IMG/VR virus record: IMGVR_UViG_2882447294_000001
Location: 587 to 64,586 of that record
Source: a virus
Lineage: Duplodnaviria > Caudoviricetes
Direction: 5' to 3' (one strand)
DNA length: 64,000 nucleotides
This document shows positions 50,601-64,000 of this stretch, in pieces. How positions within the stretch are numbered: position 1 is the first letter of the stretch; every line of letters begins with the position of its first letter. The translations under genes and the position numbers were made by a program. The notes under the pieces are model-generated. The model did not search any database, had not been told where the DNA came from, and saw only the letters and a list, made by a program, of their open reading frames with translations.

Positions 50601-51464
50601 GACGGGCTGTCGGCCGAGTACATGCTTAAGCTCGATGTCGATGGCTACATCTCCGGCATCGGCGCCTATAACGATGGCGACTCCAGCATGCTGGTCTTCC
50701 GCTCAGACCTGATCGCGTTCGCGCCGCCCAAGGGAAAGGGCAATGCGAAGGTGTTTCCGCTCGTCTACGACAGCGGTGTCGGCGCGGTCGTGATCGACAC
50801 GGCGCTGATCAAGGACGGCTCGATTCAGTCCGGCCAGTTGGGCGCGGTTCAGAGCGGCAAGCTGTTCCTGCCCGACGGTACGCCAGTGACGACAGCAGCG
50901 GGACTGATTCGCGCCGAGGCGATCGCCGTCGATGACCTCAAAGTGCAATGGGCCAATATTCAGAATGCGTCTATCAAGACTGCCGATATCGAGAATGGCG
51001 CGATTACGTCGGCCAAGATCGGCACTGCAGCTGTAGACACTCTTAAACTTGCAAATCAAGCGGTTACCATACCTGCCTCTAATTATGTGGCTGCTTCAGT
51101 GGATATAACGGGAGATGACTGGACTACAGTCGTGTCTCTCACTGTGTCGTCAACAGGTGCGCCGACACAGGTGCTTGCATCATTTGGATATTATGCCGAT
51201 GGTGGTAAAGGTGAAAATTTTTTGTCATATAGAATTCGCCGTGGGAGCACGGTTATCAGATCCGGCGATTTTGACCAAGTAAGCTATGTTGATCTTGGTA
51301 GTTTCTGGTTTACGATTTATGCGCGAGGAGTGGCAACGCCTGCAGTGCTAGATAATCCTGAAGCAGGTAACAATACATACTACATAGACGTGCGACGCCT
51401 CTACGATCGTGGATCGGTAGAAGTATACGACAGATTTATATCAACAATGGAAACCAAACGATGA
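47613..51464 (+). CDS. Long tail fibre / host-specificity protein
   Basis: FN3-like N-terminus, E-x-x-AR-x-x-AD repeats, internal CBM-like insert, DUF1983-like region and 'I.NASI.TA.I' repeats. Confidence 0.85.
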   Translation: MPTKRRRALPTVSAKADPNTRQLLDALKEIVETGEGVRGDPRNRKVTFGDLLDSGIASLIGTRIGSGIRPGDGIRNPIPNMSVPPKPEGFAAIGGFYGMVNLSWTVPETLYGNHAFTRVYRSEEDNFANAEVIGQESGAFYSDFVRDDALDPDDPTKLKGYYYWITWVSTSGVEGPPNDPSGTYAAPLIDIDYLLEILNGQLSESQLNQDLLAKIDKIVEIDEVRDQLATVRDNLLSEANRLDGRINEIDNHLTEQKEALDKDIDTVRGDLASEAERLDGRADELDQRLQGVKTALESADDDLLSRLLEAKQAIVDAATASQDGDNFLAERISGLVNVTDDHALYIGQLQRVSAERDALEAVHFDALHAETANRQASIRTQETVRITAEEALASRADAIEASVDDNRAAIVEEQTARSDAVSSLASRVGELSAKLDAAPTFGSGFEAGADFSQWVVADGNTLEADDSDPFSGLQSALATSSVSGANVGSAIYAPVPSGVMNAFAGYEIVLKIAAKQPDTDASSEAAIAYRANNGSSGWLRFTLGVEWQTFEFRYQVPSDDDPSDHRIAVWADTSGNGGGVIVDGVSARRADANIAEISAAIQAEQTARANADEALATDLDTMRSRLGTAEAALTEESQARATADEALAQRTTNMESHQDDTDARLTTEEETRSSQVESLTRRASSLESRVSDAESNITDEQSARANADEALTKQIDAAGSRIDDAEASLASEQQTRATADQALTDELSAANSRIGDVEASVIEEQQTRASADEAAAERQESLRAELDDAQARLIAEERATVAANELEAVQFEAIEVSKGGSRAAISVERQVRVAEDESLATDIRAVQAATADNAAAIVDETRARTDADTALASRASTLEAKTAENEASITDEAKARSDADSAMASRASALEAKTADNEAAIAQERSARTGADSAMARDISGLQTRVGDTESGIQEERETRIAEGEALASQITTVQNDLGGRLTSVQQTMETHGNAIDGLSAEYMLKLDVDGYISGIGAYNDGDSSMLVFRSDLIAFAPPKGKGNAKVFPLVYDSGVGAVVIDTALIKDGSIQSGQLGAVQSGKLFLPDGTPVTTAAGLIRAEAIAVDDLKVQWANIQNASIKTADIENGAITSAKIGTAAVDTLKLANQAVTIPASNYVAASVDITGDDWTTVVSLTVSSTGAPTQVLASFGYYADGGKGENFLSYRIRRGSTVIRSGDFDQVSYVDLGSFWFTIYARGVATPAVLDNPEAGNNTYYIDVRRLYDRGSVEVYDRFISTMETKR

Positions 51465-51652
51465 ATAAAAGATACGCGATATTTGATGATGCGGGCGATA
51501 TTAAATCTATTTTTATTGGTTCTGATGAACTTGTTAAGTTTCAGGGGCTAAATCATATTGAGGTGGGCCCCGATGTATCTGATGCAACACACTATATAGA
51601 TTTAGAAAATATGCAGCCTTCCATCTTGGATGAGCCAAAGAAACGCCGTTGA
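51461..51652 (+). CDS. Small fibre-associated protein
   Basis: ATGA coupling; shares low GC with the fibre tip. Confidence 0.65.
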   Translation: MNKRYAIFDDAGDIKSIFIGSDELVKFQGLNHIEVGPDVSDATHYIDLENMQPSILDEPKKRR

Positions 51653-51654
51653 CC

Positions 51655-51711
51655 CGATCACCGACTCCGACGACTCCTGATACTATCTACACATCCGCCT
51701 ACCGTGAGGTA
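51655..51711 (+). promoter_or_regulatory. Putative late promoter 3 with GTGA hairpin
   Basis: CGATCA-N20-TACTAT then TACC GTGA GGTA over the RBS. Confidence 0.55.
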
Positions 51712-51716
51712 CGCCC

Positions 51717-52226
51717 ATGCAAGCCACATCCCGCTCACCGGAGCGACAATTCCTTCACCAGGTACTCGCTGGCAATGAGCCCGCGATGCGGTGCTGCGAG
51801 ATCCTGTTCAGCGTATCGCAGACCCTCGACGACATCGTCGACGGCGACCGCGAGGTAACCGCTGCCGCAGTCATCAAAAGCTACTGGGAAGCCATGATCG
51901 AGCTTCCCGGCAATCCCTTCTATCGCCAGCACGAGCCCTACCTGCGTCCGCTGCTGGCCCAAGCCCTACAGGACTGGACGGATAGCGTGGCGCTGGAACG
52001 ATCCCAGGACCGGCACGCGCTGACGTTGGCCTTCGTGCTGCGCGACCAGCTTAGCGGCTTCGTCGTGCAGTGCGCCGGCCTGGTTGCCGGTTACGACTGG
52101 ATGCGCCAGATCGGCCCCACGATTCGGCAGTACTTCCACGACGAACGGCTGGATGATTATCTGGCATCGCTCCAACCCGAGGATGGCGAAGTCGAGCCAG
52201 TACCGGAAGGGGAGTCAGCATCATGA
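51717..52226 (+). CDS. All-helical protein with DDxxD motif, isoprenoid-synthase/prenyltransferase-like
   Basis: 'QTLDDIVDGD', 'LPGNPFY'; first gene of the ejection-protein cluster. Confidence 0.6.
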   Translation: MQATSRSPERQFLHQVLAGNEPAMRCCEILFSVSQTLDDIVDGDREVTAAAVIKSYWEAMIELPGNPFYRQHEPYLRPLLAQALQDWTDSVALERSQDRHALTLAFVLRDQLSGFVVQCAGLVAGYDWMRQIGPTIRQYFHDERLDDYLASLQPEDGEVEPVPEGESAS

Positions 52227-54891: not shown

Positions 54892-57800
54892 GTGGCTGGC
54901 AAGTGGCAACAAGTCGTGCAGAGCGAGCGCTGGCAGGCACTCGACCCCGAGCAGCGCCAGGCCGTGCGAGGTGCGTTTTTTGATCGCCAGATCCGACCCC
55001 AGACGCCGGGCGATAAGCTCGAGGCCGTGCAAAGCGCTTTCTTTACCCGCACCGAGCCGGATGTCTTCGGCAAGAGTGATGAGGAAGGTGGTGGCGTCGG
55101 CGCCATGGATTACGTCAAGGAGCTTGGCGCCGGGCTAGAAGAGGGTACCGGTGCCGTCCTGCAGGGCGCCGGCGATCTTCTCGAGCAGGGTGGCAAATGG
55201 GTCGATCGTGGGCTGCGCGCTATCGGGCTCGGCGATGCGGTCGATGTTGGTGACCGGGCGCTGGGCGGTCGCAGCCCATCCGACGCCGTGCGCGGCGCCG
55301 GCGAGTGGTTCGACGAGGGCGGCGATACTCTTCGCGCCCGTCAATCCGAGGCCGCGACACAGGCACGTGAGGACAGCACGCCGACCGGCGATATCACCAA
55401 GCCTTCGACGTGGAGCATGGGCGAGGACCCGAGCCTCGCCGGTTATGGGCTCCAGGTCTCCAACCTGATCGGCCAGTTCGCACCGCAGGCCGCTGCACTG
55501 CTGGCGCCCGGCGGGCAGGCGCGCGCTGTCGGCATGGCCAGTGTTGGTGGGCTGCAGGCGGGAGGAGCCGCCGGCCAGGATGCCGAGCAGTACGTCATGC
55601 AGCAGAGTGACGAGGATCTGGCGAAGAATTCCGGCATGTATCGGGATCTCATCGACCAGGGTGTTGAGCCGGCAGAGGCAAAGCGCCAAACCGCAGTTGC
55701 CGCGCGCGGTGCCGCATTCGCCGGGGCTGCACCAGTGGGCGGTGCCGGTGGGGCGCTGACCCATTACATTCTGGGCCCGTTCCAGCGGGCCATCGGTGGC
55801 GGCGTCGGGCGTCGTCTGGGTTACGGTCTGGCAGTGGATGCGCCGGCGGAAGGCGCTCAGGAAGTCGCCGAAACCGTGGCAGGGCGCACGGCTCAGAATG
55901 AAGCCACTCAGGGCAACCGGGATACCACGCAAGGCACCTTCGGCGATGCTGCCCTCGGTGCTATCGCTGGTGGTGGTCATGCTTCTCTCGGCGCGGCGAT
56001 GGGCGAGACGTTGCCGCAACGCAACCGGATGCCGACACCCGACGATCTGGTGCGGGAACGCACACCGGAGGACATTGCCGAGGCTGAACAGCAATACCAG
56101 CGGGATCGCGACGACGAAGCACGCCAGTGGTTCGAGCGGCGCCGCGCCGACGAGCAGTCCCAGCAGGCGGCCCGGGAGCAATTCGGCGAAGACGGCGCAG
56201 CGGTTTGGCAGAACGCCGACAACGACCTGCCAGTCAGGGTTCGCGGCATCGAGCCGGAGCCGGACGAGGAAGGCCGGCAGTATGCCCGCGTCGAAGTCGA
56301 TGGCCAGGAAGGCTTTGTGCCCTTGGATGAGCTTCGTGCCACGGAATCAGACCCGGTCGAAGAATCAGCGGCAGAGCCCAACCCGGACAATCCGCGCCAG
56401 CCCCAACTCGGCATCGACAACGACATTCGCGTCGCCGAGCGGATCGGCGCCGACGAGGACGCCATCCGTCTGCGTAATGCCAAGTCACTGTTCCTCCGCG
56501 CTATGGAGCAGGACGCCGCCGGCAACAACGATGCAGGATCGCGCCTACGCGAGCGCGGGCTGAACATCTATCGCGACATCTACGGCGACCCTGAATCACC
56601 GATGCCGGAACGGCCGGCGTCATTCCCGGTGCCGTACGAATATGTCGGTGATGTCGAGGCAGGCGGGCAGCTTCCGGTTCAGGCCGCTCGTCAGGATCGA
56701 GGAGAAACCTATTCCGGCGAGCCCGATCCGGCGCTTGCCACCCCGGCACCGCAACTACGCCAGGGGGACCAGGCCACCGGCGACCCTCTGATCTACGGCC
56801 AAGGGCCAACCGTCCGTCGCGGCAATGCCAATACCGGCCTGGATCAGCCGTTCGAAGGTGCGCGCACGACCGACACCAGCGCCGAGCAGCGCAGTGATTA
56901 CGATCCAACTAAGCCTGTAGATACGCCGCGCCACCGCCGACGCATGGAGACGAGTGGTCGACGTGCCACCGCATATCTAGCTGATAACACGCCGGTACCG
57001 GTACGTTACCGCGTCATGGATCTGGACGAGCTGACGCCCTCAAATGATCCTGATGGTGCAGTGAACCCACTGTTCCCAACAGAGCTTCAACCCCGGGACC
57101 GAACCGGGAAGAACAGCCAGGTTCAAGTGCGCAATATCGCGGCACGCCTCAACCCCGAGCGTCTTGGCGAATCCACAGATGCAGGCAGCGGATCGCCGAT
57201 CGTGGGTCCTGATGGTGTAGTTGAATCCGGCAACGGCCGAACGATGGCCATCGCACAGGCATATCGCAGCGATAGTCCGCAGGCCAGGCGCTATCGTGAC
57301 TTCGTGCGTCAGCGCGCTCAGGACTTTGGTATCGACCCAGGCGTCGTTGCCGGGATGCGAAATCCCGTTCTCGTTCGTGAGCGCACAGGTAGTATCGACC
57401 GTGCCGAATTCGCCCGCCGTGCCAACGAAGCCGATGTCGCTGGCATGACACCGCATGAATTGGCAATCTCCGATGCTGATCGGCTCAGCGTTGACGACTT
57501 GGCGCAGTGGGCACCGGATGAGAGTGGCGATCCGCTTGCAGCGTCGAACCGTGCCTTTGCGCGCCGCTTCGCCCAGCGCATGGGGAACAACGAGGCCAGC
57601 CGCTATCGTGGCCGGGATGGCCAGCCGACGCCGGAACTCGGCGAGCGCATGATGCGTGCCGTATTCGCCAAAGGCTATGCAGACGACCAAGGGCGTCCGT
57701 CGACCGATATGGTTGAAATGGTCGCCGAGCCCCAGGGGCGGATGCGCAATCTGACAGTGGCACTGCAATCAGCCGCGCCTGATTTTGCCATTGCACGAGA

Positions 57801-60800
57801 ATATGGCGGCGAGCAAGCCCAGGCCATGGCTGATACCGTTGTCGATGCGGTACGCATTGTGCGTCAGGCGCGCTCTTCCGGTATCTCTGTGCGTGAGCTG
57901 GTGAGCCAAAATGATGCGTTCAGCCAGCCCGTGCCACATGACACGGCCATGTTGGCATCCTTCATTGCCAACAATGCCCGTAGCCGATCTGGATTGAATG
58001 AAGCGCTGTCGCTGATTGCCGCAGCGACCCGTAACCGTGCTGAAAGCAGTCGAAACGGCTCGCTATTCGGCGATCAAGTCAGCAACCAGGACATTCTCGA
58101 TGCAGCAACGCGACAAGATTCATCTACGCCGGATCCAGAACGATCCAGCAGTGACGGAGCTTTTGCGGGAGGGGATCGCGCAGGCACAGGCGAGACGCCC
58201 CGAGGGTCGGAAACTGATCGTGCCCGAGCACCTGAACAAACCCAAGAAGTAGACGATCCGCTTCTCACGACGTACACCGAGCAGGATATCGCCGACCGCG
58301 AGCGAGCCAATGCAGCGTCAGCGCAAGATGAGCAGCTCCAGCGCCAGGCGGAGGCGCAGCGCGCTCAGGCCGACCGTGACGCCGAGGGCTTCACGCTCAC
58401 AGGCAGCGATCGGAGTGCGGATGTAGCTGCCGCTCAAGGTCAGGATGATCTGCTCGATACACGGTACGCCATGCGTTCGAACGCCGGAGACGTGGCGCCA
58501 CCGACCGCCGAACAGGTCCGAGCCGCTTTGGACAGCCTGGGCGAGCGTCTTGGCGACTTCACCGTCGTGGATTCGGCGGCGGAACTCCCGCTCCTGAATC
58601 AGCTAATGATGGCTCGCGATAACGTCGATCCCGCCGATGTCCGTGGCATCTATAGCGGAGACCGCCTGTACATCGTGGCGTCCAACAATGACAACATTCA
58701 GCAGGCCGTAGCGACGGCCGTTCACGAGGCCGTCGGGCACAAGGGGATTCGTGGCGTTCTCGGCGACGAGATCGAGCCGGTGATGCGCCAACTCTACAAG
58801 TCGCTGCCATTCGACAAGCGCGGCCGTGAAGCGCTCGACGAGGTGCTGGCCGACTATCCGTTCCTGGATCGCAATAACCCAGACGACCAGGTGACCATCG
58901 CCGAAGAAATGGTCGCGCACCTGCTCGAGAAAGGATACAGGCCCAAGGCGTGGCAGCGCGCCGTGGCCAAGATCCGGGAATTGCTGCGGAGATTCTTCCC
59001 CAGCGTGGCCTGGACCTACTCGGACGTACTGGCGCTGGGAGAGCGATCCCGCGAGTATCTGCGTTCGCAGGCCAGCACCTCGGAACCCGGCCAGGGGCCG
59101 AACCGATACTCGCGCCGCGGCTGGCGCTCGGACTTTCCCGACGCGGCACTGGCGCACCCGCTGCGCTGGGCAACGCAGCATCCGGACTACGAGGCGGCCA
59201 AGGCCGGCGACGACCAGGCAGCGCTACGGCTGGCGCGCGATGCCGTCACGCCGGAGTTCGTTGAGCAGGTGCGACAGATGATCCCCACCGGTTCGCAGCC
59301 TCGCATCGTGCCGGTGGTGGCGCAGGAAAGCGCGGGCAGGAATCGGATTCCGGCAATGGCTGCCGAAGTTCTCGCAGCACGGCTGGGCCTTGGTACCGTC
59401 GATAACCTGACCCAGCGCGAGCGCGTATCGCGTACCGGTGCCAATGCGATGGATCGCCTGCAACGCCAGCCTACGTTCGACGGCGACGTGGATGGCGGCG
59501 ACTTCCTCTTGCTCGATGACACCTTGACCCAGGGCGGCACGCTGGCGCAGTTGAAGACGCATATCGAAGACCAGGGCGGGCGGGTGCTTGGCGTGGCGGC
59601 ATTGACCGGCAAGCAGTACTCGCGCAAAATTGCTGTCGACCCATCAACTCTGGATCAAGTCCGTGACCGATTCGGTTCTGTCGAAAACCAGTGGCGTGCA
59701 GCCTTCGGCTATGGCTTCGAAGGACTCACCCAATCGGAAGCCCGAACGCTCCTTACATTCGAGCGCGGACGTCTATCGCCTGACGAACTCCGAAATCGAA
59801 TCCCTGCGCTCCGAGATGCAAGCCTCAATGGCGTGGGCGAGGGAGCAGCTGGCGATCGATCCGGACCTGAAGCACCTCTAAGCGATCCCTCCCGCTACAG
59901 TCTGCGCCCCCAGCGTCAGCCCGTCGCTGATCAATTCGATGACCTGAGCCCTGAGCAACAGGCCTTCATGGCTAAGTTCGGCCCCAGTACGCCGACGCGC
60001 CGCGTCATGGAGTGGTGGAAGGATCTCAGCCACCGCGCCGGCCTGCGTATCCGGCAGGGCATGATCGATCAGTATGCCGCGCTCAAGGAACTCGACGAGA
60101 AACGCTTCGGCAAGGATGGTGCACTCAAGCAAAGCATCACCAGCTCCAGTTGGGTGCTGGCGCGCATGTCGAATGCCGCCAATGGCGCGCTGCACGCCAT
60201 GCTGCACAACGGTCGCATCTACCTCGATCCCGATCAGAAGGTGATCGACATTCGGGACGACGACTCCAAAGGGCTCGGCGCCGTGCTGGGTCGACTGGGC
60301 AGCCCGGCGGAGATCGAGCGCTTCATGATGTGGATCGCCGCCAATCGCTCCAGCAAGCTCAAGGATGAGGGCCGCGAGTTCCTTTTCAGCGACGGCGAGA
60401 TTCGTGCCGGCATGCAGCTCGACCAAGGACGCATGGCGGATGGCGGCAGTCGGGCCGAGCGCTACGCCGAGGTCTTCGACGAGTTCCAGCAGTATCGCGA
60501 CGACGTGCTGGCCATTGCGGAACGGGCGGGCGTGATCCGACCCGATCAGCGCGCGATGTGGCGCGACGAATTCTACGTGCCGTTCTACCGGCTCAAGGAC
60601 GACAAGGACGTTAACGTCCAGCTCGGCACCAGCGGGCTATCTCGACAGCAGGCCTACAAGCGCCTGAAGGGCGGTACGCAGAACATCAACGACTTGCTTC
60701 AGAACACGATGATGAACTTCCATCATCTGCTCGATGCCAGCCTGAAAAACCAGGCAGCGCAGCAGGCGATCGACAATGCCGAAGCGATGGGTATGGCGCG

Positions 60801-62586
60801 CCGCGTGCCGGAGAGCGGGCGCGATACTTCGAAGTCGACCTTCGTCATGAAGGACGGCGCCAAATCCTTCTACGAAATCGACGATCCGCTCGTGTTCCAG
60901 GCGCTTTCCGCCCTGGCGCACCCGGGCATGAACAACACGATCATGAAGGTGATGCGTGGTTTCAAGCGCGTCTTCACCAATCTGACGACGACCACCCCGC
61001 AGTTCATGGTCGCCAACCTGATTCGCGACAGCCTGCAGGCCGTGGCGACCAACGAAGTCAGCATGAATGTGTTCAAGAACGTCTACGATGGCACCGGTAC
61101 GCTGCGAGACCAGCGCAAGCGCGCCCGGATGCTGGCTGCCGGTGGTAGCTTCAACTTCGGCCACCTGTATAACAACAACCCCGACGAGCTACGCGCGCAA
61201 CTGACGCGCAACCTTCGCGATGCCAAGATCGTCGGTGTTCCCGGATCCCGGCTCAAAGGCTTTGCCGCGCCGGCGGCGCTGATCCGTGCAGGTTGGGCGA
61301 AGTGGGGCGACGTCACCGACTTTGCCGAGAACCTGAACCGAGCGGCGATATACGACCAGAATCAGGACCAGGGCAAGCTCAAGGCGGCATTCGAGGCTCG
61401 GGACCTGATCGACTTCAGCGCACGCGGCGCATGGCCGGCGGTGCGCATCCTGACCGACATCGTGCCGTTCCTGAACGCTCGCATCCAGGGGCTGGACAAG
61501 ATCTACCGCAGCGGTGTGAAGCCGGGCGCCAATGTGCTGGCCGCAGCCTTCGGCAAAGGCGAGGCCGGTGTTTCCGATCGTCAGGCGGCTGCCCGATTCT
61601 GGTCCGTCGCCGGCGCGCTCACACTGGCCACGGTCGCGCTCTATCTCCACAACCGCGACGACGAGGACTACCAGAAGCTCGAGGAGTGGCAGAAGGACAC
61701 ATACTGGTTCTTCAAGGTCGGCGATCAGGAATTCTTCATTCCCAAACCGTTCGAGGTGGGTGCCATCGCCACCATGGCCGAGCGCGTCACCCAGCAGTTC
61801 GTCGACGATGAGGCGACGGGGGCGTTGTTCGGCCAGCGCATGATGCACATGCTCACCGACACGTTCAGCTTCTCGCCAGTGCCGCAGATGATGCAGCCCG
61901 CGCTGGATGTTTACGCCAACCGGGATTCGTTCACCAATCGGCCGATCGAGGGCATGGGCGATGAGCGGCTTTCGCCACAACTCCGCAAACGCGATGACAG
62001 CTCTCTGGCGGCGCGTGGCGCCAGTTGGGTGCTGAATCACTCCGTTGGCGCCATCGGCGATCCCGAACTCAACCCGATGGCGCTGTCGCCGCTACAGATC
62101 GACTACCTGATCCAGGGCTATCTCGGCCAGGTTGGGTCATGGGCGATTGGATCGGCCGATGTCGCATGGCGAGTTTTCGACGGCAAGGACGAGCCGGCCA
62201 AGCATTGGTACGAATACCAGCCGATCCGTCGCTTCTATCGAAACCTGGGCGACGAGCCGCGATATACCCGCTATGGCACGGTCTTTTATGACGGATTGCG
62301 CGAGGCCGAACGTGCCTATGCCGACGTCAAGGAGCTGGGTGAGCTCGGACGGATCGAAGAGGCTCGAGAGTTGGCCAAGAACAAGGCCGATGTCTTGCGC
62401 CTGCGCAAGCCTTTGATGAAGGCTCAGCGCGACCTGGGCAAGATTCGAGCCCAGATGGACGCCATTCGCCGCTCGGACCTGGACGGAGACCTGAAACGCC
62501 AGCGCCTCGATCGACTCACGGCCGTGCGGAACCGGATCCAGCAGGTATTGGGTGAGAAGATTCTGGAGCAGCGCGCGGCGGAGTGA
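54892..62586 (+). CDS. Large polyvalent ejection protein: ddrB-like ParB, zincin-like peptidase, PRTase and LPD38-like domains
   Basis: 'LQPRDR..VESGNGR', 'HEAVGH..AEEMVAH', 'LLLDDTLTQGGT', 'IPKPFEVG..RPI'. Confidence 0.85.
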   Translation: MAGKWQQVVQSERWQALDPEQRQAVRGAFFDRQIRPQTPGDKLEAVQSAFFTRTEPDVFGKSDEEGGGVGAMDYVKELGAGLEEGTGAVLQGAGDLLEQGGKWVDRGLRAIGLGDAVDVGDRALGGRSPSDAVRGAGEWFDEGGDTLRARQSEAATQAREDSTPTGDITKPSTWSMGEDPSLAGYGLQVSNLIGQFAPQAAALLAPGGQARAVGMASVGGLQAGGAAGQDAEQYVMQQSDEDLAKNSGMYRDLIDQGVEPAEAKRQTAVAARGAAFAGAAPVGGAGGALTHYILGPFQRAIGGGVGRRLGYGLAVDAPAEGAQEVAETVAGRTAQNEATQGNRDTTQGTFGDAALGAIAGGGHASLGAAMGETLPQRNRMPTPDDLVRERTPEDIAEAEQQYQRDRDDEARQWFERRRADEQSQQAAREQFGEDGAAVWQNADNDLPVRVRGIEPEPDEEGRQYARVEVDGQEGFVPLDELRATESDPVEESAAEPNPDNPRQPQLGIDNDIRVAERIGADEDAIRLRNAKSLFLRAMEQDAAGNNDAGSRLRERGLNIYRDIYGDPESPMPERPASFPVPYEYVGDVEAGGQLPVQAARQDRGETYSGEPDPALATPAPQLRQGDQATGDPLIYGQGPTVRRGNANTGLDQPFEGARTTDTSAEQRSDYDPTKPVDTPRHRRRMETSGRRATAYLADNTPVPVRYRVMDLDELTPSNDPDGAVNPLFPTELQPRDRTGKNSQVQVRNIAARLNPERLGESTDAGSGSPIVGPDGVVESGNGRTMAIAQAYRSDSPQARRYRDFVRQRAQDFGIDPGVVAGMRNPVLVRERTGSIDRAEFARRANEADVAGMTPHELAISDADRLSVDDLAQWAPDESGDPLAASNRAFARRFAQRMGNNEASRYRGRDGQPTPELGERMMRAVFAKGYADDQGRPSTDMVEMVAEPQGRMRNLTVALQSAAPDFAIAREYGGEQAQAMADTVVDAVRIVRQARSSGISVRELVSQNDAFSQPVPHDTAMLASFIANNARSRSGLNEALSLIAAATRNRAESSRNGSLFGDQVSNQDILDAATRQDSSTPDPERSSSDGAFAGGDRAGTGETPRGSETDRARAPEQTQEVDDPLLTTYTEQDIADRERANAASAQDEQLQRQAEAQRAQADRDAEGFTLTGSDRSADVAAAQGQDDLLDTRYAMRSNAGDVAPPTAEQVRAALDSLGERLGDFTVVDSAAELPLLNQLMMARDNVDPADVRGIYSGDRLYIVASNNDNIQQAVATAVHEAVGHKGIRGVLGDEIEPVMRQLYKSLPFDKRGREALDEVLADYPFLDRNNPDDQVTIAEEMVAHLLEKGYRPKAWQRAVAKIRELLRRFFPSVAWTYSDVLALGERSREYLRSQASTSEPGQGPNRYSRRGWRSDFPDAALAHPLRWATQHPDYEAAKAGDDQAALRLARDAVTPEFVEQVRQMIPTGSQPRIVPVVAQESAGRNRIPAMAAEVLAARLGLGTVDNLTQRERVSRTGANAMDRLQRQPTFDGDVDGGDFLLLDDTLTQGGTLAQLKTHIEDQGGRVLGVAALTGKQYSRKIAVDPSTLDQVRDRFGSVENQWRAAFGYGFEGLTQSEARTLLTFERGRLSPDELRNRIPALRDASLNGVGEGAAGDRSGPEAPLSDPSRYSLRPQRQPVADQFDDLSPEQQAFMAKFGPSTPTRRVMEWWKDLSHRAGLRIRQGMIDQYAALKELDEKRFGKDGALKQSITSSSWVLARMSNAANGALHAMLHNGRIYLDPDQKVIDIRDDDSKGLGAVLGRLGSPAEIERFMMWIAANRSSKLKDEGREFLFSDGEIRAGMQLDQGRMADGGSRAERYAEVFDEFQQYRDDVLAIAERAGVIRPDQRAMWRDEFYVPFYRLKDDKDVNVQLGTSGLSRQQAYKRLKGGTQNINDLLQNTMMNFHHLLDASLKNQAAQQAIDNAEAMGMARRVPESGRDTSKSTFVMKDGAKSFYEIDDPLVFQALSALAHPGMNNTIMKVMRGFKRVFTNLTTTTPQFMVANLIRDSLQAVATNEVSMNVFKNVYDGTGTLRDQRKRARMLAAGGSFNFGHLYNNNPDELRAQLTRNLRDAKIVGVPGSRLKGFAAPAALIRAGWAKWGDVTDFAENLNRAAIYDQNQDQGKLKAAFEARDLIDFSARGAWPAVRILTDIVPFLNARIQGLDKIYRSGVKPGANVLAAAFGKGEAGVSDRQAAARFWSVAGALTLATVALYLHNRDDEDYQKLEEWQKDTYWFFKVGDQEFFIPKPFEVGAIATMAERVTQQFVDDEATGALFGQRMMHMLTDTFSFSPVPQMMQPALDVYANRDSFTNRPIEGMGDERLSPQLRKRDDSSLAARGASWVLNHSVGAIGDPELNPMALSPLQIDYLIQGYLGQVGSWAIGSADVAWRVFDGKDEPAKHWYEYQPIRRFYRNLGDEPRYTRYGTVFYDGLREAERAYADVKELGELGRIEEARELAKNKADVLRLRKPLMKAQRDLGKIRAQMDAIRRSDLDGDLKRQRLDRLTAVRNRIQQVLGEKILEQRAAE
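58100..58252 (+). CDS. Nested +1-frame 50-aa ORF after the ParB-like domain
   Basis: AGGA RBS; GC3 by hand about 36/49 in this frame versus 18/51 in the host frame. Confidence 0.6.
   Translation: MQQRDKIHLRRIQNDPAVTELLREGIAQAQARRPEGRKLIVPEHLNKPKK
59711..59881 (+). CDS. Nested +1-frame 56-aa ORF at the end of the PRTase domain
   Basis: GC3 by hand about 43/55 versus 25/57 in the host frame; amphipathic helix 'LTNSEIESLRSEMQASMAWAREQL'; RBS weak. Confidence 0.6.
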   Translation: MASKDSPNRKPERSLHSSADVYRLTNSEIESLRSEMQASMAWAREQLAIDPDLKHL

Positions 62587-62820
62587 TCAGCGTTTGACCT
62601 TGGTGGCAGCAATGCCGCCGAGGAACAGCGCGCCGAACATCAGCATCGGAACGTTGACGAGCAGGGCGACCAGGCACAGGAAACCGGGAATGCCGACGAA
62701 GCTGACGAGTAACCAGCCCTGGACGGACTGCCACTCCTTGGGGAAGCCGATCATGGCCAGCAGGCCTAGGATGGGTAGGCCAATGACCAGACCGAAGATG
62801 ATTTCGGGTTCGGGCGTCAT
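62587..62820 (-). CDS. Small membrane protein (moron)
   Basis: Two to three hydrophobic segments; convergent with the late operon. Confidence 0.65.
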   Translation of the reverse strand: MTPEPEIIFGLVIGLPILGLLAMIGFPKEWQSVQGWLLVSFVGIPGFLCLVALLVNVPMLMFGALFLGGIAATKVKR

Positions 62821-62867
62821 TTGCCTACAGTAGTTCGAAAGTAGGGAGACTGCGAGGGCCAAACAGT

Positions 62868-62893
62868 AAAAGGGCCGCGAGTGCGGCCCTTTT
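62868..62893. terminator. Bidirectional intrinsic terminator
   Basis: AAAAGGGCCGC-gagt-GCGGCCCTTTT. Confidence 0.8.
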
Positions 62894-62910
62894 GCAGAAG
62901 ATGGTGGGTT

Positions 62911-63108
62911 TTAACCCTTGCGCGATTTTTCGCGAAGAATTTTAGCGAGAGCCACCGACGCCTGCTTCTTCTGAGAAGGCTGAGTATCAGTAGGGTTACG
63001 CCTTGATGACGTGGAAAGATACCCCGAGCTACGGTAGAAACTTGGATCACGCGGGGTTGACGAATTTGAACACACCGAGCTGGTTGACGAGGAAAGGTTA
63101 GTCATCAT
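62911..63108 (-). CDS. Small Ser-rich basic ORF overlapping the stop of the proteasome-like gene
   Basis: ATGATGACTAA overlap; ends just before the terminator. Confidence 0.4.
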   Translation of the reverse strand: MMTNLSSSTSSVCSNSSTPRDPSFYRSSGYLSTSSRRNPTDTQPSQKKQASVALAKILREKSRKG

Positions 63109-64000
63109 GATTAAATCCCGTGTGTTTGTGGATTAGCTCAGGCTCGTTGAGCATCGCGAATTTTTCTCCACGTCTGAGTACCCCTATATGCGTCCTACCA
63201 CCAACTGTCGCGATGCCTGGTTCGAAGCGCTGCATCCCTGATTGAGTATTGACCACCATCTCAACAAAATCGATAGCGTATTGAGTCGGTAGGTTTGCGA
63301 AATCGATGTTTGCTCGACTGTTCGACAGCACTGCTTCCAGACTTTTGGTGGGCAAGCCGTGCCGCTCCACTAGGTCGAATTGTAACGATTCGTCCGCTCC
63401 AATCAGTAGGCGCTGAACGTAATTCGCCTGCCCAGCCCAGGCTATACCAGGACGGCCATCGTACTGCAACTGCATGCTCTTCGCTAGCACATCAATACGA
63501 TAGACTCTGCCTTCGCCTTTTGGTTCGAAGCCAGCAACAAGAAATTCGACGTTATCGTACAGCTGGGGATAAGATTCATCGTCGGCTGTTTCTGTGTAGC
63601 CGACAGTAAGCTCCCACTTGTCTCGAACATATGCGAGAAAGGCGGAAGCAACCTCCTCTACGGTTCCGAGCTTGCTTCCGGTCTCGCGTCGGAATTTGTT
63701 CGCGTGCTCGGCGATGGTCATACCATCCAATATGGCTAGCCCAGCAGTGACTGCTGCCACTTGTATTGAGCCCTCGCTAATACAGAACATCTTCCTAACA
63801 CCACCAAATACAGTGGTAACGGCATGGGAGGCCTGCCCCCGGAAGGTCAGATTTCCATGCTGGTCGAGAATGGGGCTGCCGTGCTCATCCGTAACAAGCT
63901 GAACGTCTTTCGCCCTGAAGACGGGCTCCGTCATGCTGGAGAGGCTGTCACATCCGAGGACAATTGCCTCTGAGGTCGCCAAAGCTACGTTAATTGTCAT
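63098..64000 (-). CDS. Proteasome beta-subunit-like Ntn hydrolase
   Basis: M-Thr start 'TINVAL..AIVLGCDS', 'RKMF', 'FLVAGF', 'TVGG..HIGVL'; start codon is at the window edge. Confidence 0.75.
   Translation of the reverse strand: MTINVALATSEAIVLGCDSLSSMTEPVFRAKDVQLVTDEHGSPILDQHGNLTFRGQASHAVTTVFGGVRKMFCISEGSIQVAAVTAGLAILDGMTIAEHANKFRRETGSKLGTVEEVASAFLAYVRDKWELTVGYTETADDESYPQLYDNVEFLVAGFEPKGEGRVYRIDVLAKSMQLQYDGRPGIAWAGQANYVQRLLIGADESLQFDLVERHGLPTKSLEAVLSNSRANIDFANLPTQYAIDFVEMVVNTQSGMQRFEPGIATVGGRTHIGVLRRGEKFAMLNEPELIHKHTGFNHDD

Follow-up and report, generated by a model that had tools for sequence, protein, structure and literature searches.

Phosphoribosyltransferase (PRTase) and DdrB-like ParB domains have been described as parts of polyvalent proteins, related solo PRTases occur in phages and plasmids, and a metallopeptidase has reportedly been placed in P1 DdrB-like proteins at the location of an HExxH motif (Iyer et al. 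2017, PMC5512222). One solo relative, KfrC of plasmid RA3, is a 355-residue protein with its own C-terminal domain that binds KorB and VirD4; according to the available portions of the report, KfrC in excess inhibits growth, changing its DDT motif to AAA relieves the inhibition, and a truncation to residues 1–249 could not be cloned, with only rearranged clones obtained (PMC8124265). We analysed a 64,000-nucleotide stretch of a Caudoviricetes sequence (positions 587 to 64,586 of IMG/VR record IMGVR_UViG_2882447294_000001; hereafter, the window), in which one long gene, called the host gene below, combines a DdrB-like ParB domain, an HExxH stretch, a PRTase and an LPD38 domain in one predicted late product, the same class of architecture as that of the polyvalent proteins and P1 DdrB. 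Its +1 frame holds two short open reading frames (ORFs), nested ORF 1 at the 3′ end of the DdrB-like module (site 1) and nested ORF 2 at the 3′ end of the PRTase module (site 2), both of which are probably real, overprinted protein-coding genes. An earlier reading made from the letters alone (the sequence-only reading) had singled out the same two stretches, and the comparisons reported here confirm and strengthen that observation: as judged from sequence, ORFs 1 and 2 are conserved overprinted genes at module ends.

Short proteins read from another frame inside a longer gene include Rz1 within Rz of phage lambda, E within D of phiX174 and comS within srfA of Bacillus. Only a small number of such nested genes are known, and they are dropped by annotation pipelines. 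The window's ORFs are like all three in this arrangement and like comS in lying within a giant multi-module gene; no lipobox or membrane segment hinting at a spanin or lysis role was seen in the nested peptides. ORF 2, in addition, is bound to one domain, which it accompanies across phyla whether that domain stands alone or is fused, and to our knowledge no such domain-bound, moving nested gene has been described for Rz1, E or comS. The KfrC/Upf54.4 proteins of IncU and IncP-1 conjugative plasmids share with the window a PRTase that carries the same +1 ORF, although RA3 KfrC is a solo plasmid protein whereas the window's PRTase is one module of a 2,564-residue virion protein. P1 DdrB, unlike the window, showed no relative of ORF 1. 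In polymorphic toxins, to which the sequence-only reading had likened the locus, the immunity gene is separate and lies downstream. The likeness extends to shared swappable effector modules, a small gene tied to one module and possible orphans elsewhere, but not to the layout, since the window's candidate partner is nested in the +1 frame instead of lying directly downstream. A literature search on nested genes in polyvalent proteins found nothing, and the words 'frameshift' and 'overlap' occur 0 times in the available portions of the article on these proteins (PMC5512222).

The two stretches stand out by their codon-position composition. Guanine-plus-cytosine (GC) content at codon positions 1, 2 and 3 is 0.71, 0.47 and 0.72 over the whole host gene, compared with 0.74, 0.70 and 0.36 at 58102–58251 and 0.78, 0.58 and 0.46 at 59722–59871, and at both stretches the values become the usual coding pattern once read in the +1 frame. 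This bears out the shift of codon bias that the sequence-only reading had described, and its report of rare codons also holds: at their gene-wide frequency of 0.028, CGA, GGA and CTA together would make up 1.4 of the 51 host codons in stretch 1 and 1.6 of the 57 in stretch 2, but the counts are 6 and 11. The complete +1 ORFs that it listed, of 50 and 56 amino acids at 58100–58252 and 59711–59881, are present. Because the host gene contains many alternative-frame ORFs of at least 40 amino acids, their length alone is unremarkable; it is their conservation in relatives that makes both more than a chance occurrence. ORF 1 covers host residues 1070–1121, where the host frame is a weakly constrained, low-complexity linker rich in Gln, Arg, Pro, Ala and Glu. 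ORF 2 covers residues 1607–1664 and overlaps the final ~55 codons of the PRTase domain; its peptide has a variable N-terminal part rich in Ser, Pro and Lys, a near-invariant L-T-x-S-E-I-x-x-L-R core (invariant motif region at 59780–59809) and a conserved C-terminal part.

We assessed conservation at the two sites against a forward null in which the host protein was held fixed and synonymous codons were redrawn from the gene's own usage, with 300 draws per sequence. The observed +1 similarity was reached in 0/300 draws for all 21 sequences, with z scores of 9.4–23.2 at site 1 (9/9 sequences) and 6.8–14.0 at site 2 (12/12). Over the same bases, the +1 frame scored higher than the host frame in 21/21 sequences. 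In sliding windows elsewhere in the same genes the host frame scored 57–152 and both off-frames 25–69; the +1 frame equalled or passed the host frame at the two sites only, and the +2 frame stayed low. Mean scores across six frames likewise singled out the +1 frame, at 73.4 versus 44.3–49.0 for the other five at site 1 and 56.8 versus 32.7–43.9 at site 2. It was open in 9/9 and 12/12 sequences, respectively, compared with at most 6/9 and 2/12 for the other shifted or antisense frames. Under the reverse null, with the +1 peptide fixed, the host frame was only weakly above expectation (z from −0.6 to 4.9), and because so little excess conservation is left to it, the +1 frame is taken as the main constraint within the overlaps. 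Substitutions in the +1 peptides were conservative (for example E/D, S/A and I/V). Relative to the long ORF, the small one was in +1 in 21/21 sequences, and in the nine solo genes its stop fell 2–9 codons past the host stop. Peptide sequence, open frame and stop position are thus conserved at both sites, and for ORF 1 the start is as well. Conservation of the +1 frames and co-occurrence with the overlapped module, which the sequence-only reading had proposed checking, were found for both ORFs, each at the 3′ end of its module.

Relatives came from genomes of the window's bacterial family, of which 36 of 342 (its own included) match host residues 1000–1720 at an expectation value (E) of up to 1e-10, mostly within ORFs of 2,000–3,800 amino acids with shuffled domains; one of these loci is identical to a record named Halomonas sp. 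The ORF 1 peptide is present with the same end position in nine distinct loci of this family. An unbiased viral scan, based on the host frame upstream of the overlap, gave 12 loci, 11 of them usable, with the whole peptide in nine and its N-terminal half only in two. The start falls at the same codon in all 15 dereplicated relatives (ATG in 12, GTG in three) while the host residues at that place vary among Asp, Asn, Gly and Arg; under the null, the probability of such a start is 0–0.68 per sequence, with a mean of ~0.33. AGGA or GAGGA sits 8 nucleotides before the start, and the mean Shine–Dalgarno (SD) pairing energy across the 15 is −5.4 kcal/mol compared with −4.0 kcal/mol in synonymous resamplings, a modest difference. 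Two relatives (L039 and L181) have a +1 stop just before the ORF 1 start, which favours initiation at that start. ORF 1 is kept with its upstream module whichever type of downstream domain follows. A site-1 profile search of 1.84 billion representatives returned five matches, three of which are small proteins of the ORF 1 kind; the remaining two are long repeat proteins that we regarded as spurious. ORF 1 appears, from these searches, to be confined to a (pro)phage lineage found in the bacterial family of the window, together with viral contigs related to it.

The domain that follows ORF 1 varies among loci, being of the coiled-coil/HExxH or another type (L003, L183, L184 and L187 versus the window, L009 and L014). 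An antisense ORF of 78 amino acids (58074–58310, minus strand) covers nested ORF 1. We rejected it as a real constraint: antisense frames are open in five to six of nine relatives, and because it is both less open and less conserved than the +1 frame it is best regarded as a by-product.

ORF 2 is far more widely distributed. Its core occurs in the +1 frame of 12 distinct loci of the bacterial family, including solo PRTase genes of ~250 amino acids, and among 13 PRTase-matching places in the family search, 11 carry the peptide at E < 1e-3; of the other two, one match is weak (L036, E 0.78) and one locus has none (L028, genome G279). For a sample unbiased with respect to the peptide, viral contigs were scanned by a PRTase-core pattern lying outside the overlap, which gave 122 confirmed loci. 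In the best 80 of these, a hidden Markov model (HMM) of the ORF 2 peptide matched in the +1 frame in 68, in frame 0 in one and in +2 in none, and the remaining 11 showed a diverged core in the +1 frame by eye. ORF 2 is found both in solo PRTase genes of 204–580 amino acids and in polyvalent proteins of at least 2,000. Each nested ORF stays with its module when neighbouring domains change, which is the part of the sequence-only reading's claim of co-travelling domains that stood. In the single frame-0 match (L140), a viral PRTase gene, an internal deletion or a change of frame puts the peptide in frame with the upstream remnant.

Stop codons give a further view of the same site. A loose pattern located 73 of the 80 viral loci (the other seven were dropped), and dereplication at 80% nucleotide identity left 23, in all of which the +1 frame is open from −28 to −10 codons, compared with 5.6 expected. 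In 49 dereplicated sequences with an intact core, pooled from the genome and viral collections, +1 stops occur as expected from −200 to −31 codons, fall to four versus 9.5 expected at −30 to −21, vanish from −20 to +19 (0 versus 82.7 expected), and rise above expectation beyond +20 (16 versus 9.8, then 36 versus 17.8). Stops scattered through the +1 frame of homologues, which the sequence-only reading had named as evidence against its proposal, are therefore absent at site 2, and the profile is the footprint expected of a translated ORF of ~50 codons.

The KfrC connection places ORF 2 in well-studied plasmid genes. The window's PRTase module aligns to RA3 KfrC residues 4–252 with 44% identity (BLASTP, E 8e-58) and with the DDT motif aligned, and ORF 2 is 48% identical (E 1e-11) to a +1 ORF inside RA3 kfrC. 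That ORF spans KfrC residues 207–260, with GGAGG 7 nucleotides before a TTG and 13 before an ATG. In conjugative plasmids, site-2 peptide matches underlie genes annotated as phosphoribosyltransferase, kfrC or Upf54.4 (58 and 117 records), and in the 40 listed of the 117 plasmid records the nested ORF is unannotated, with only the PRTase or kfrC gene named, or nothing. The available portions of the KfrC report do not describe a nested ORF, and the words 'overlapping' and 'frameshift' occur 0 times in them (PMC8124265). Because the RA3 ORF maps to residues 207–260, the KfrC 1–249 truncation also cuts it, leaving it without its last 11 codons.

ORF 2 relatives also exist outside PRTase genes. Six free-standing copies (L194–L199) were found in plasmids of 2.6–20.8 kb that lack a PRTase core by tblastn, with Aeromonas, Edwardsiella, Xanthomonas, Escherichia and Shigella as hosts. 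Against the peptide HMM they score E 3e-9 to 4e-13, and they have the same core and following (putative) helix. They start 4–8 codons before the core, and the start often coincides with the stop of the preceding gene or lies only a few bases from it. They are 48–74% identical to the RA3 peptide while the other frame gathers stops: the would-be PRTase frame is interrupted in five of the six, and inside the conserved core in three. One copy is annotated as a 45-residue hypothetical protein and the other five are unannotated. A further 182 small proteins from gene callers (27–119 amino acids) have matches to the site-2 profile with E values no higher than 0.01 (2e-25 for the best), and together with the free-standing copies they make the ORF 2 family a gene family in its own right. 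The free-standing copies adjoin mob, rep, par or resolvase genes.

Searches for other forms of the ORF 2 peptide were less productive. Ten longer proteins match the site-2 profile, including two-copy small proteins and weak matches with unrelated names, and some are ORF calls that begin in a toxin-like fragment or one of an IS66 transposase and continue into the 3′ remnant of a PRTase; no clean in-frame fusion of the ORF 2 peptide to a PRTase was seen among the ten. Some small proteins contain two copies of the core (P0038, P0082, P0007, P0129, P0131 and P0132), and in L192 (560–1300) the dual-coding segment is tandemly duplicated, in both frames, inside a 663-residue PRTase ORF. A free-standing two-copy gene in metagenome contigs (P0129) was considered and rejected, its best locus being this tandem duplication inside the 663-residue PRTase ORF and not a free gene. 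Scans of eight small peptides from both sites against Pfam, PHROGs and NCBIfam gave no match at or above a curated cut-off and none that was convincing. An ESM Atlas search with one site-2 peptide gave best scores of 0.82–0.84 to unnamed clusters, which is a lead only. In blastn against phages, one viral relative matched through its unrelated downstream domain only.

In the proposed mechanism, both ORFs would be read by internal initiation on the mRNA of the host gene, and each would yield a separate small protein. ORF 1 would give a basic peptide of 50 amino acids from its conserved ATG or GTG with AGGA 8 nucleotides upstream. ORF 2 would give a peptide of 56–72 amino acids encoded by the last part of the PRTase domain and kept wherever that domain occurs, be it as a solo gene of phages or conjugative plasmids (RA3 kfrC among them) or as a fused part of polyvalent proteins from several phyla. 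Internal initiation is a well-grounded proposal for ORF 1 and for the solo forms of ORF 2, and a less well-grounded one for the window's own ORF 2. For the latter, the sequence-only reading had chosen ATG 59711 as the start, but this codon is kept in only five of 13 distinct lineage sequences, whereas GTG 59663 is kept in all 13, which makes 59663–59881 the likelier ORF; a TTG at 59630 is a further candidate. GTG 59663 arises from a host CGT Arg codon, and CGT accounts for 0.19 of the Arg codons in the gene. Across relatives, ATGs upstream of the core cluster at −33, −27/−28 and −19/−20 codons, and in most solo PRTase genes there is an ATG whose SD pairing energy is −6 to −12 kcal/mol. One promoter-like site was found near ORF 2 (Table 1), compared with a mean of 0.3 in shuffles.

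Several observations weigh against taking both ORFs as genes. Since related sequences do not count as independent observations, the probabilities given here are overstated. At site 2 there is no positionally conserved start across relatives, and no clear SD sequence was found for the window's own ORF 2. Two candidate start signals for ORF 2 were tried and rejected: a conserved ATG at its G-Y-G site, where 15 of 38 sequences use TAT for the Tyr and 23 use TAC, against a background TAT fraction of 0.58, and an ATG enrichment at −35 to −15 of the core, where 38 of 49 sequences compare with 34.1 expected. The 54 genome loci picked by the ORF 2 peptide motif itself are a biased sample and serve as context only. 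Among their 55 small ORFs, 49 are nested in +1 of an ORF homologous to the PRTase; the six exceptions comprise three in 3′ remnants of PRTase genes (L064, L070 and L089) and three that sit in the +1 frame of short ORFs of 117–139 amino acids (L054, L077 and L095). At site 1, stop depletion is weak (one seen versus 5.4 expected over codons 0–39, with 14/15 open), and because host-frame composition already makes +1 stops rare there, openness counts for little on its own; the exception, L007, has a +1 stop 9 codons after the ORF 1 start, where a close relative reads on. ORF 1 was also not found in the loci of P1, Achromobacter phage CF418P1 and Aeromonas phage phiARM81mr, against which the ORF 1 and ORF 2 peptide HMMs gave nothing below E 1, and had no match in plasmids.

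The simplest alternative is that there is no second gene and that the +1 similarity is a by-product of host conservation, GC-rich composition, or an RNA or DNA element. The abundance of alternative-frame ORFs in the host gene, the host-frame composition that makes +1 stops rare at site 1, and the sharing of the same bases by the host motif (I-R-D/N-R-I) and the +1 motif at site 2 all lend it something. It is contradicted by the forward null in every one of the 21 sequences, by a stop depletion that is frame-specific with sharp borders, by the +1 frame being the best of six, by the conservative substitutions, and by free-standing copies that retain the peptide frame and its identity to the RA3 peptide as the other frame decays. 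This explanation fails the tests run here, and we consider it highly improbable. Programmed +1 frameshifting, in which ribosomes would slip into the +1 frame and produce shorter isoforms ending after the ParB or PRTase module with a conserved tail, would explain why +1 stops coincide with module borders, why site 2 lacks a fixed start codon and has a weak or absent SD sequence in the window copy, and why rare host-frame codons (CGA and others) lie inside the overlap. It agrees badly with the length of +1 frame kept open before the core, which at site 2 reaches back to about −28 codons through a stretch that is conserved in the host frame too, and with free-standing copies that have their own starts 4–8 codons before the motif. 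The site-1 start codon at a fixed position (15/15), the +1 stops directly upstream of it in two relatives, and the strong SD and ATG of solo genes also speak against it, and no conserved slippery site was noticed, though no systematic search for one was made. Frameshifting is accordingly improbable, and separate small proteins from internal starts are the preferred reading.

What the small proteins do is a further matter. The sequence-only reading proposed an effector/immunity cassette, in which each nested peptide inhibits or chaperones the domain it overlaps, protects the producing cell and is missing in the newly infected one; plasmid copies would then be orphan immunity genes. ORF 2 is indeed strictly co-inherited with the PRTase domain in every context sampled, and the toxicity of excess KfrC, its loss on DDT-to-AAA change and the failure to clone a 1–249 form lacking the last 11 codons of the nested ORF (PMC8124265, available portions) fit this proposal. 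That truncation, however, also lacks the KfrC C-terminal domain, which is perhaps a sufficient cause, and ORF 2 relatives stand free in the small plasmids without any PRTase, which goes against a strict pairing. The free-standing copies lower the toxin/immunity claim, yet they may themselves be orphan immunity genes, and the proposal is possible, if doubtful. We suggest, with low confidence, that the ORF 2 product works with or tempers a toxic PRTase activity in the producing cell; given the free-standing plasmid copies, an independent action is just as conceivable. Of these readings, the one of most interest is that of a PRTase modulator or antidote, at which the published KfrC toxicity hints. 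In its fullest form, which we think unlikely, the KfrC-type PRTase would be a two-frame cassette that pairs a toxic nucleotide-modifying effector with an antidote bearing the L-T-x-S-E-I-x-x-L-R core, with orphan antidotes on plasmids and ORF 1 as a younger example. If true, the small protein would check the effector in its producer, and recombination could not part the two when the module is shuffled among phages, plasmids and polyvalent proteins. The small mobilizable plasmids with a free-standing copy would carry an orphan antidote against PRTase effectors that rival elements deliver, and ORF 1 would be a second, younger case of the same design in the DdrB-like module.

Under the preferred reading of both ORFs as overprinted genes, ORF 2 is a gene conserved across several phyla, tied to one domain and unannotated in model plasmids. 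Published kfrC deletions, truncations and over-expression constructs also alter this hidden gene, and phenotypes assigned to KfrC may therefore be partly its doing. The locus exemplifies how a small partner gene could remain with its module while polyvalent proteins shuffle their domains, and it illustrates that a codon-position GC shift within a long gene can flag real dual coding.

The host gene itself is present, within the window stretch, as a single copy in its 4.6-Mb genome (contig C67). Its Pfam matches are ddrB-ParB (PF18763, residues 698–831, 129.9 bits versus a cut-off of 27.6) and LPD38 (residues 2257–2443), while the PRTase match (PF00156, residues 1522–1575) is weak at 16.3 bits, below the cut-off of 26.3. 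PHROG matches set module borders at 697–1072 (phrog_2299, the P1 DdrB kind), 1417–1637 (phrog_22413, a family of ~242 amino acids) and 1662–2550 (phrog_18222), and residues 189–493 match part of a virion RNA polymerase family. Residues 689–1069 are 38.5% identical to the phage P1 DdrB region (tblastn). These borders refine the sequence-only reading's placement of stretch 1 right after the ParB domain: it begins ~240 residues past the Pfam match (residue 1070 versus 831), but does sit at the end of the DdrB-homologous module, where phrog_2299 ends at 1072 and the P1 DdrB alignment at 1069. Megablast of the host gene against phage records gave no match; the closest phage by protein is Achromobacter phage CF418P1, at 33% identity.

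Table 1. Positions of the host gene, its modules and the nested ORFs with their candidate signals, in window coordinates
Feature	Position	Strand	Basis
Host gene, GTG start, 2,564 amino acids	54892..62586	+	ORF call
DdrB-like module: ParB domain and helical extension, host residues 689–1072	56956..58107	+	phrog_2299; P1 DdrB tblastn
AGGA, Shine–Dalgarno-like, 8 nucleotides before the ORF 1 ATG	58088..58091	+	sequence
Nested ORF 1, 50 amino acids from ATG, basic, isoelectric point 10.9	58100..58252; alternative start TTG 58016	+	+1 frame
KfrC/Upf54.4-type phosphoribosyltransferase module, host residues 1404–1662	59101..59877	+	BLASTP to RA3 KfrC; phrog_22413
DDT motif of the PRTase module	59509–59541	+	alignment with RA3 KfrC
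Sigma-70-like promoter match TTGACC-17-CAAAAT (9/12) upstream of ORF 2; weak lead	59602..59630	+	pattern match
Nested ORF 2, 72 amino acids from GTG	59663..59881	+	+1 frame; GTG kept across lineage

Genes upstream of the host gene match tail protein, internal virion protein (phrog_511) and tail fibre families, and GC content falls to ~0.52 after 62750 (62750–64000), beyond the polyvalent gene, at a probable prophage border. On these two grounds, the large late genes of a prophage end with the host gene, and its product can fairly be labelled a 'polyvalent virion protein'.

Between the nested ORFs lies an HExxH motif (window 58723–58740, host residues 1278–1283), where a Pfam scan to E 0.01 found no peptidase family; the HExxH module was common in the bacterial-family search (query residues ~180–412). 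GC at third codon positions is also low in the host frame across the ParB domain (0.52–0.60 at 56842–57441), without a shift to another frame, and may point to a different origin of that module. GC content also drops, to 0.45–0.46, at window positions 51000–51750, the end of the tail-fibre gene.

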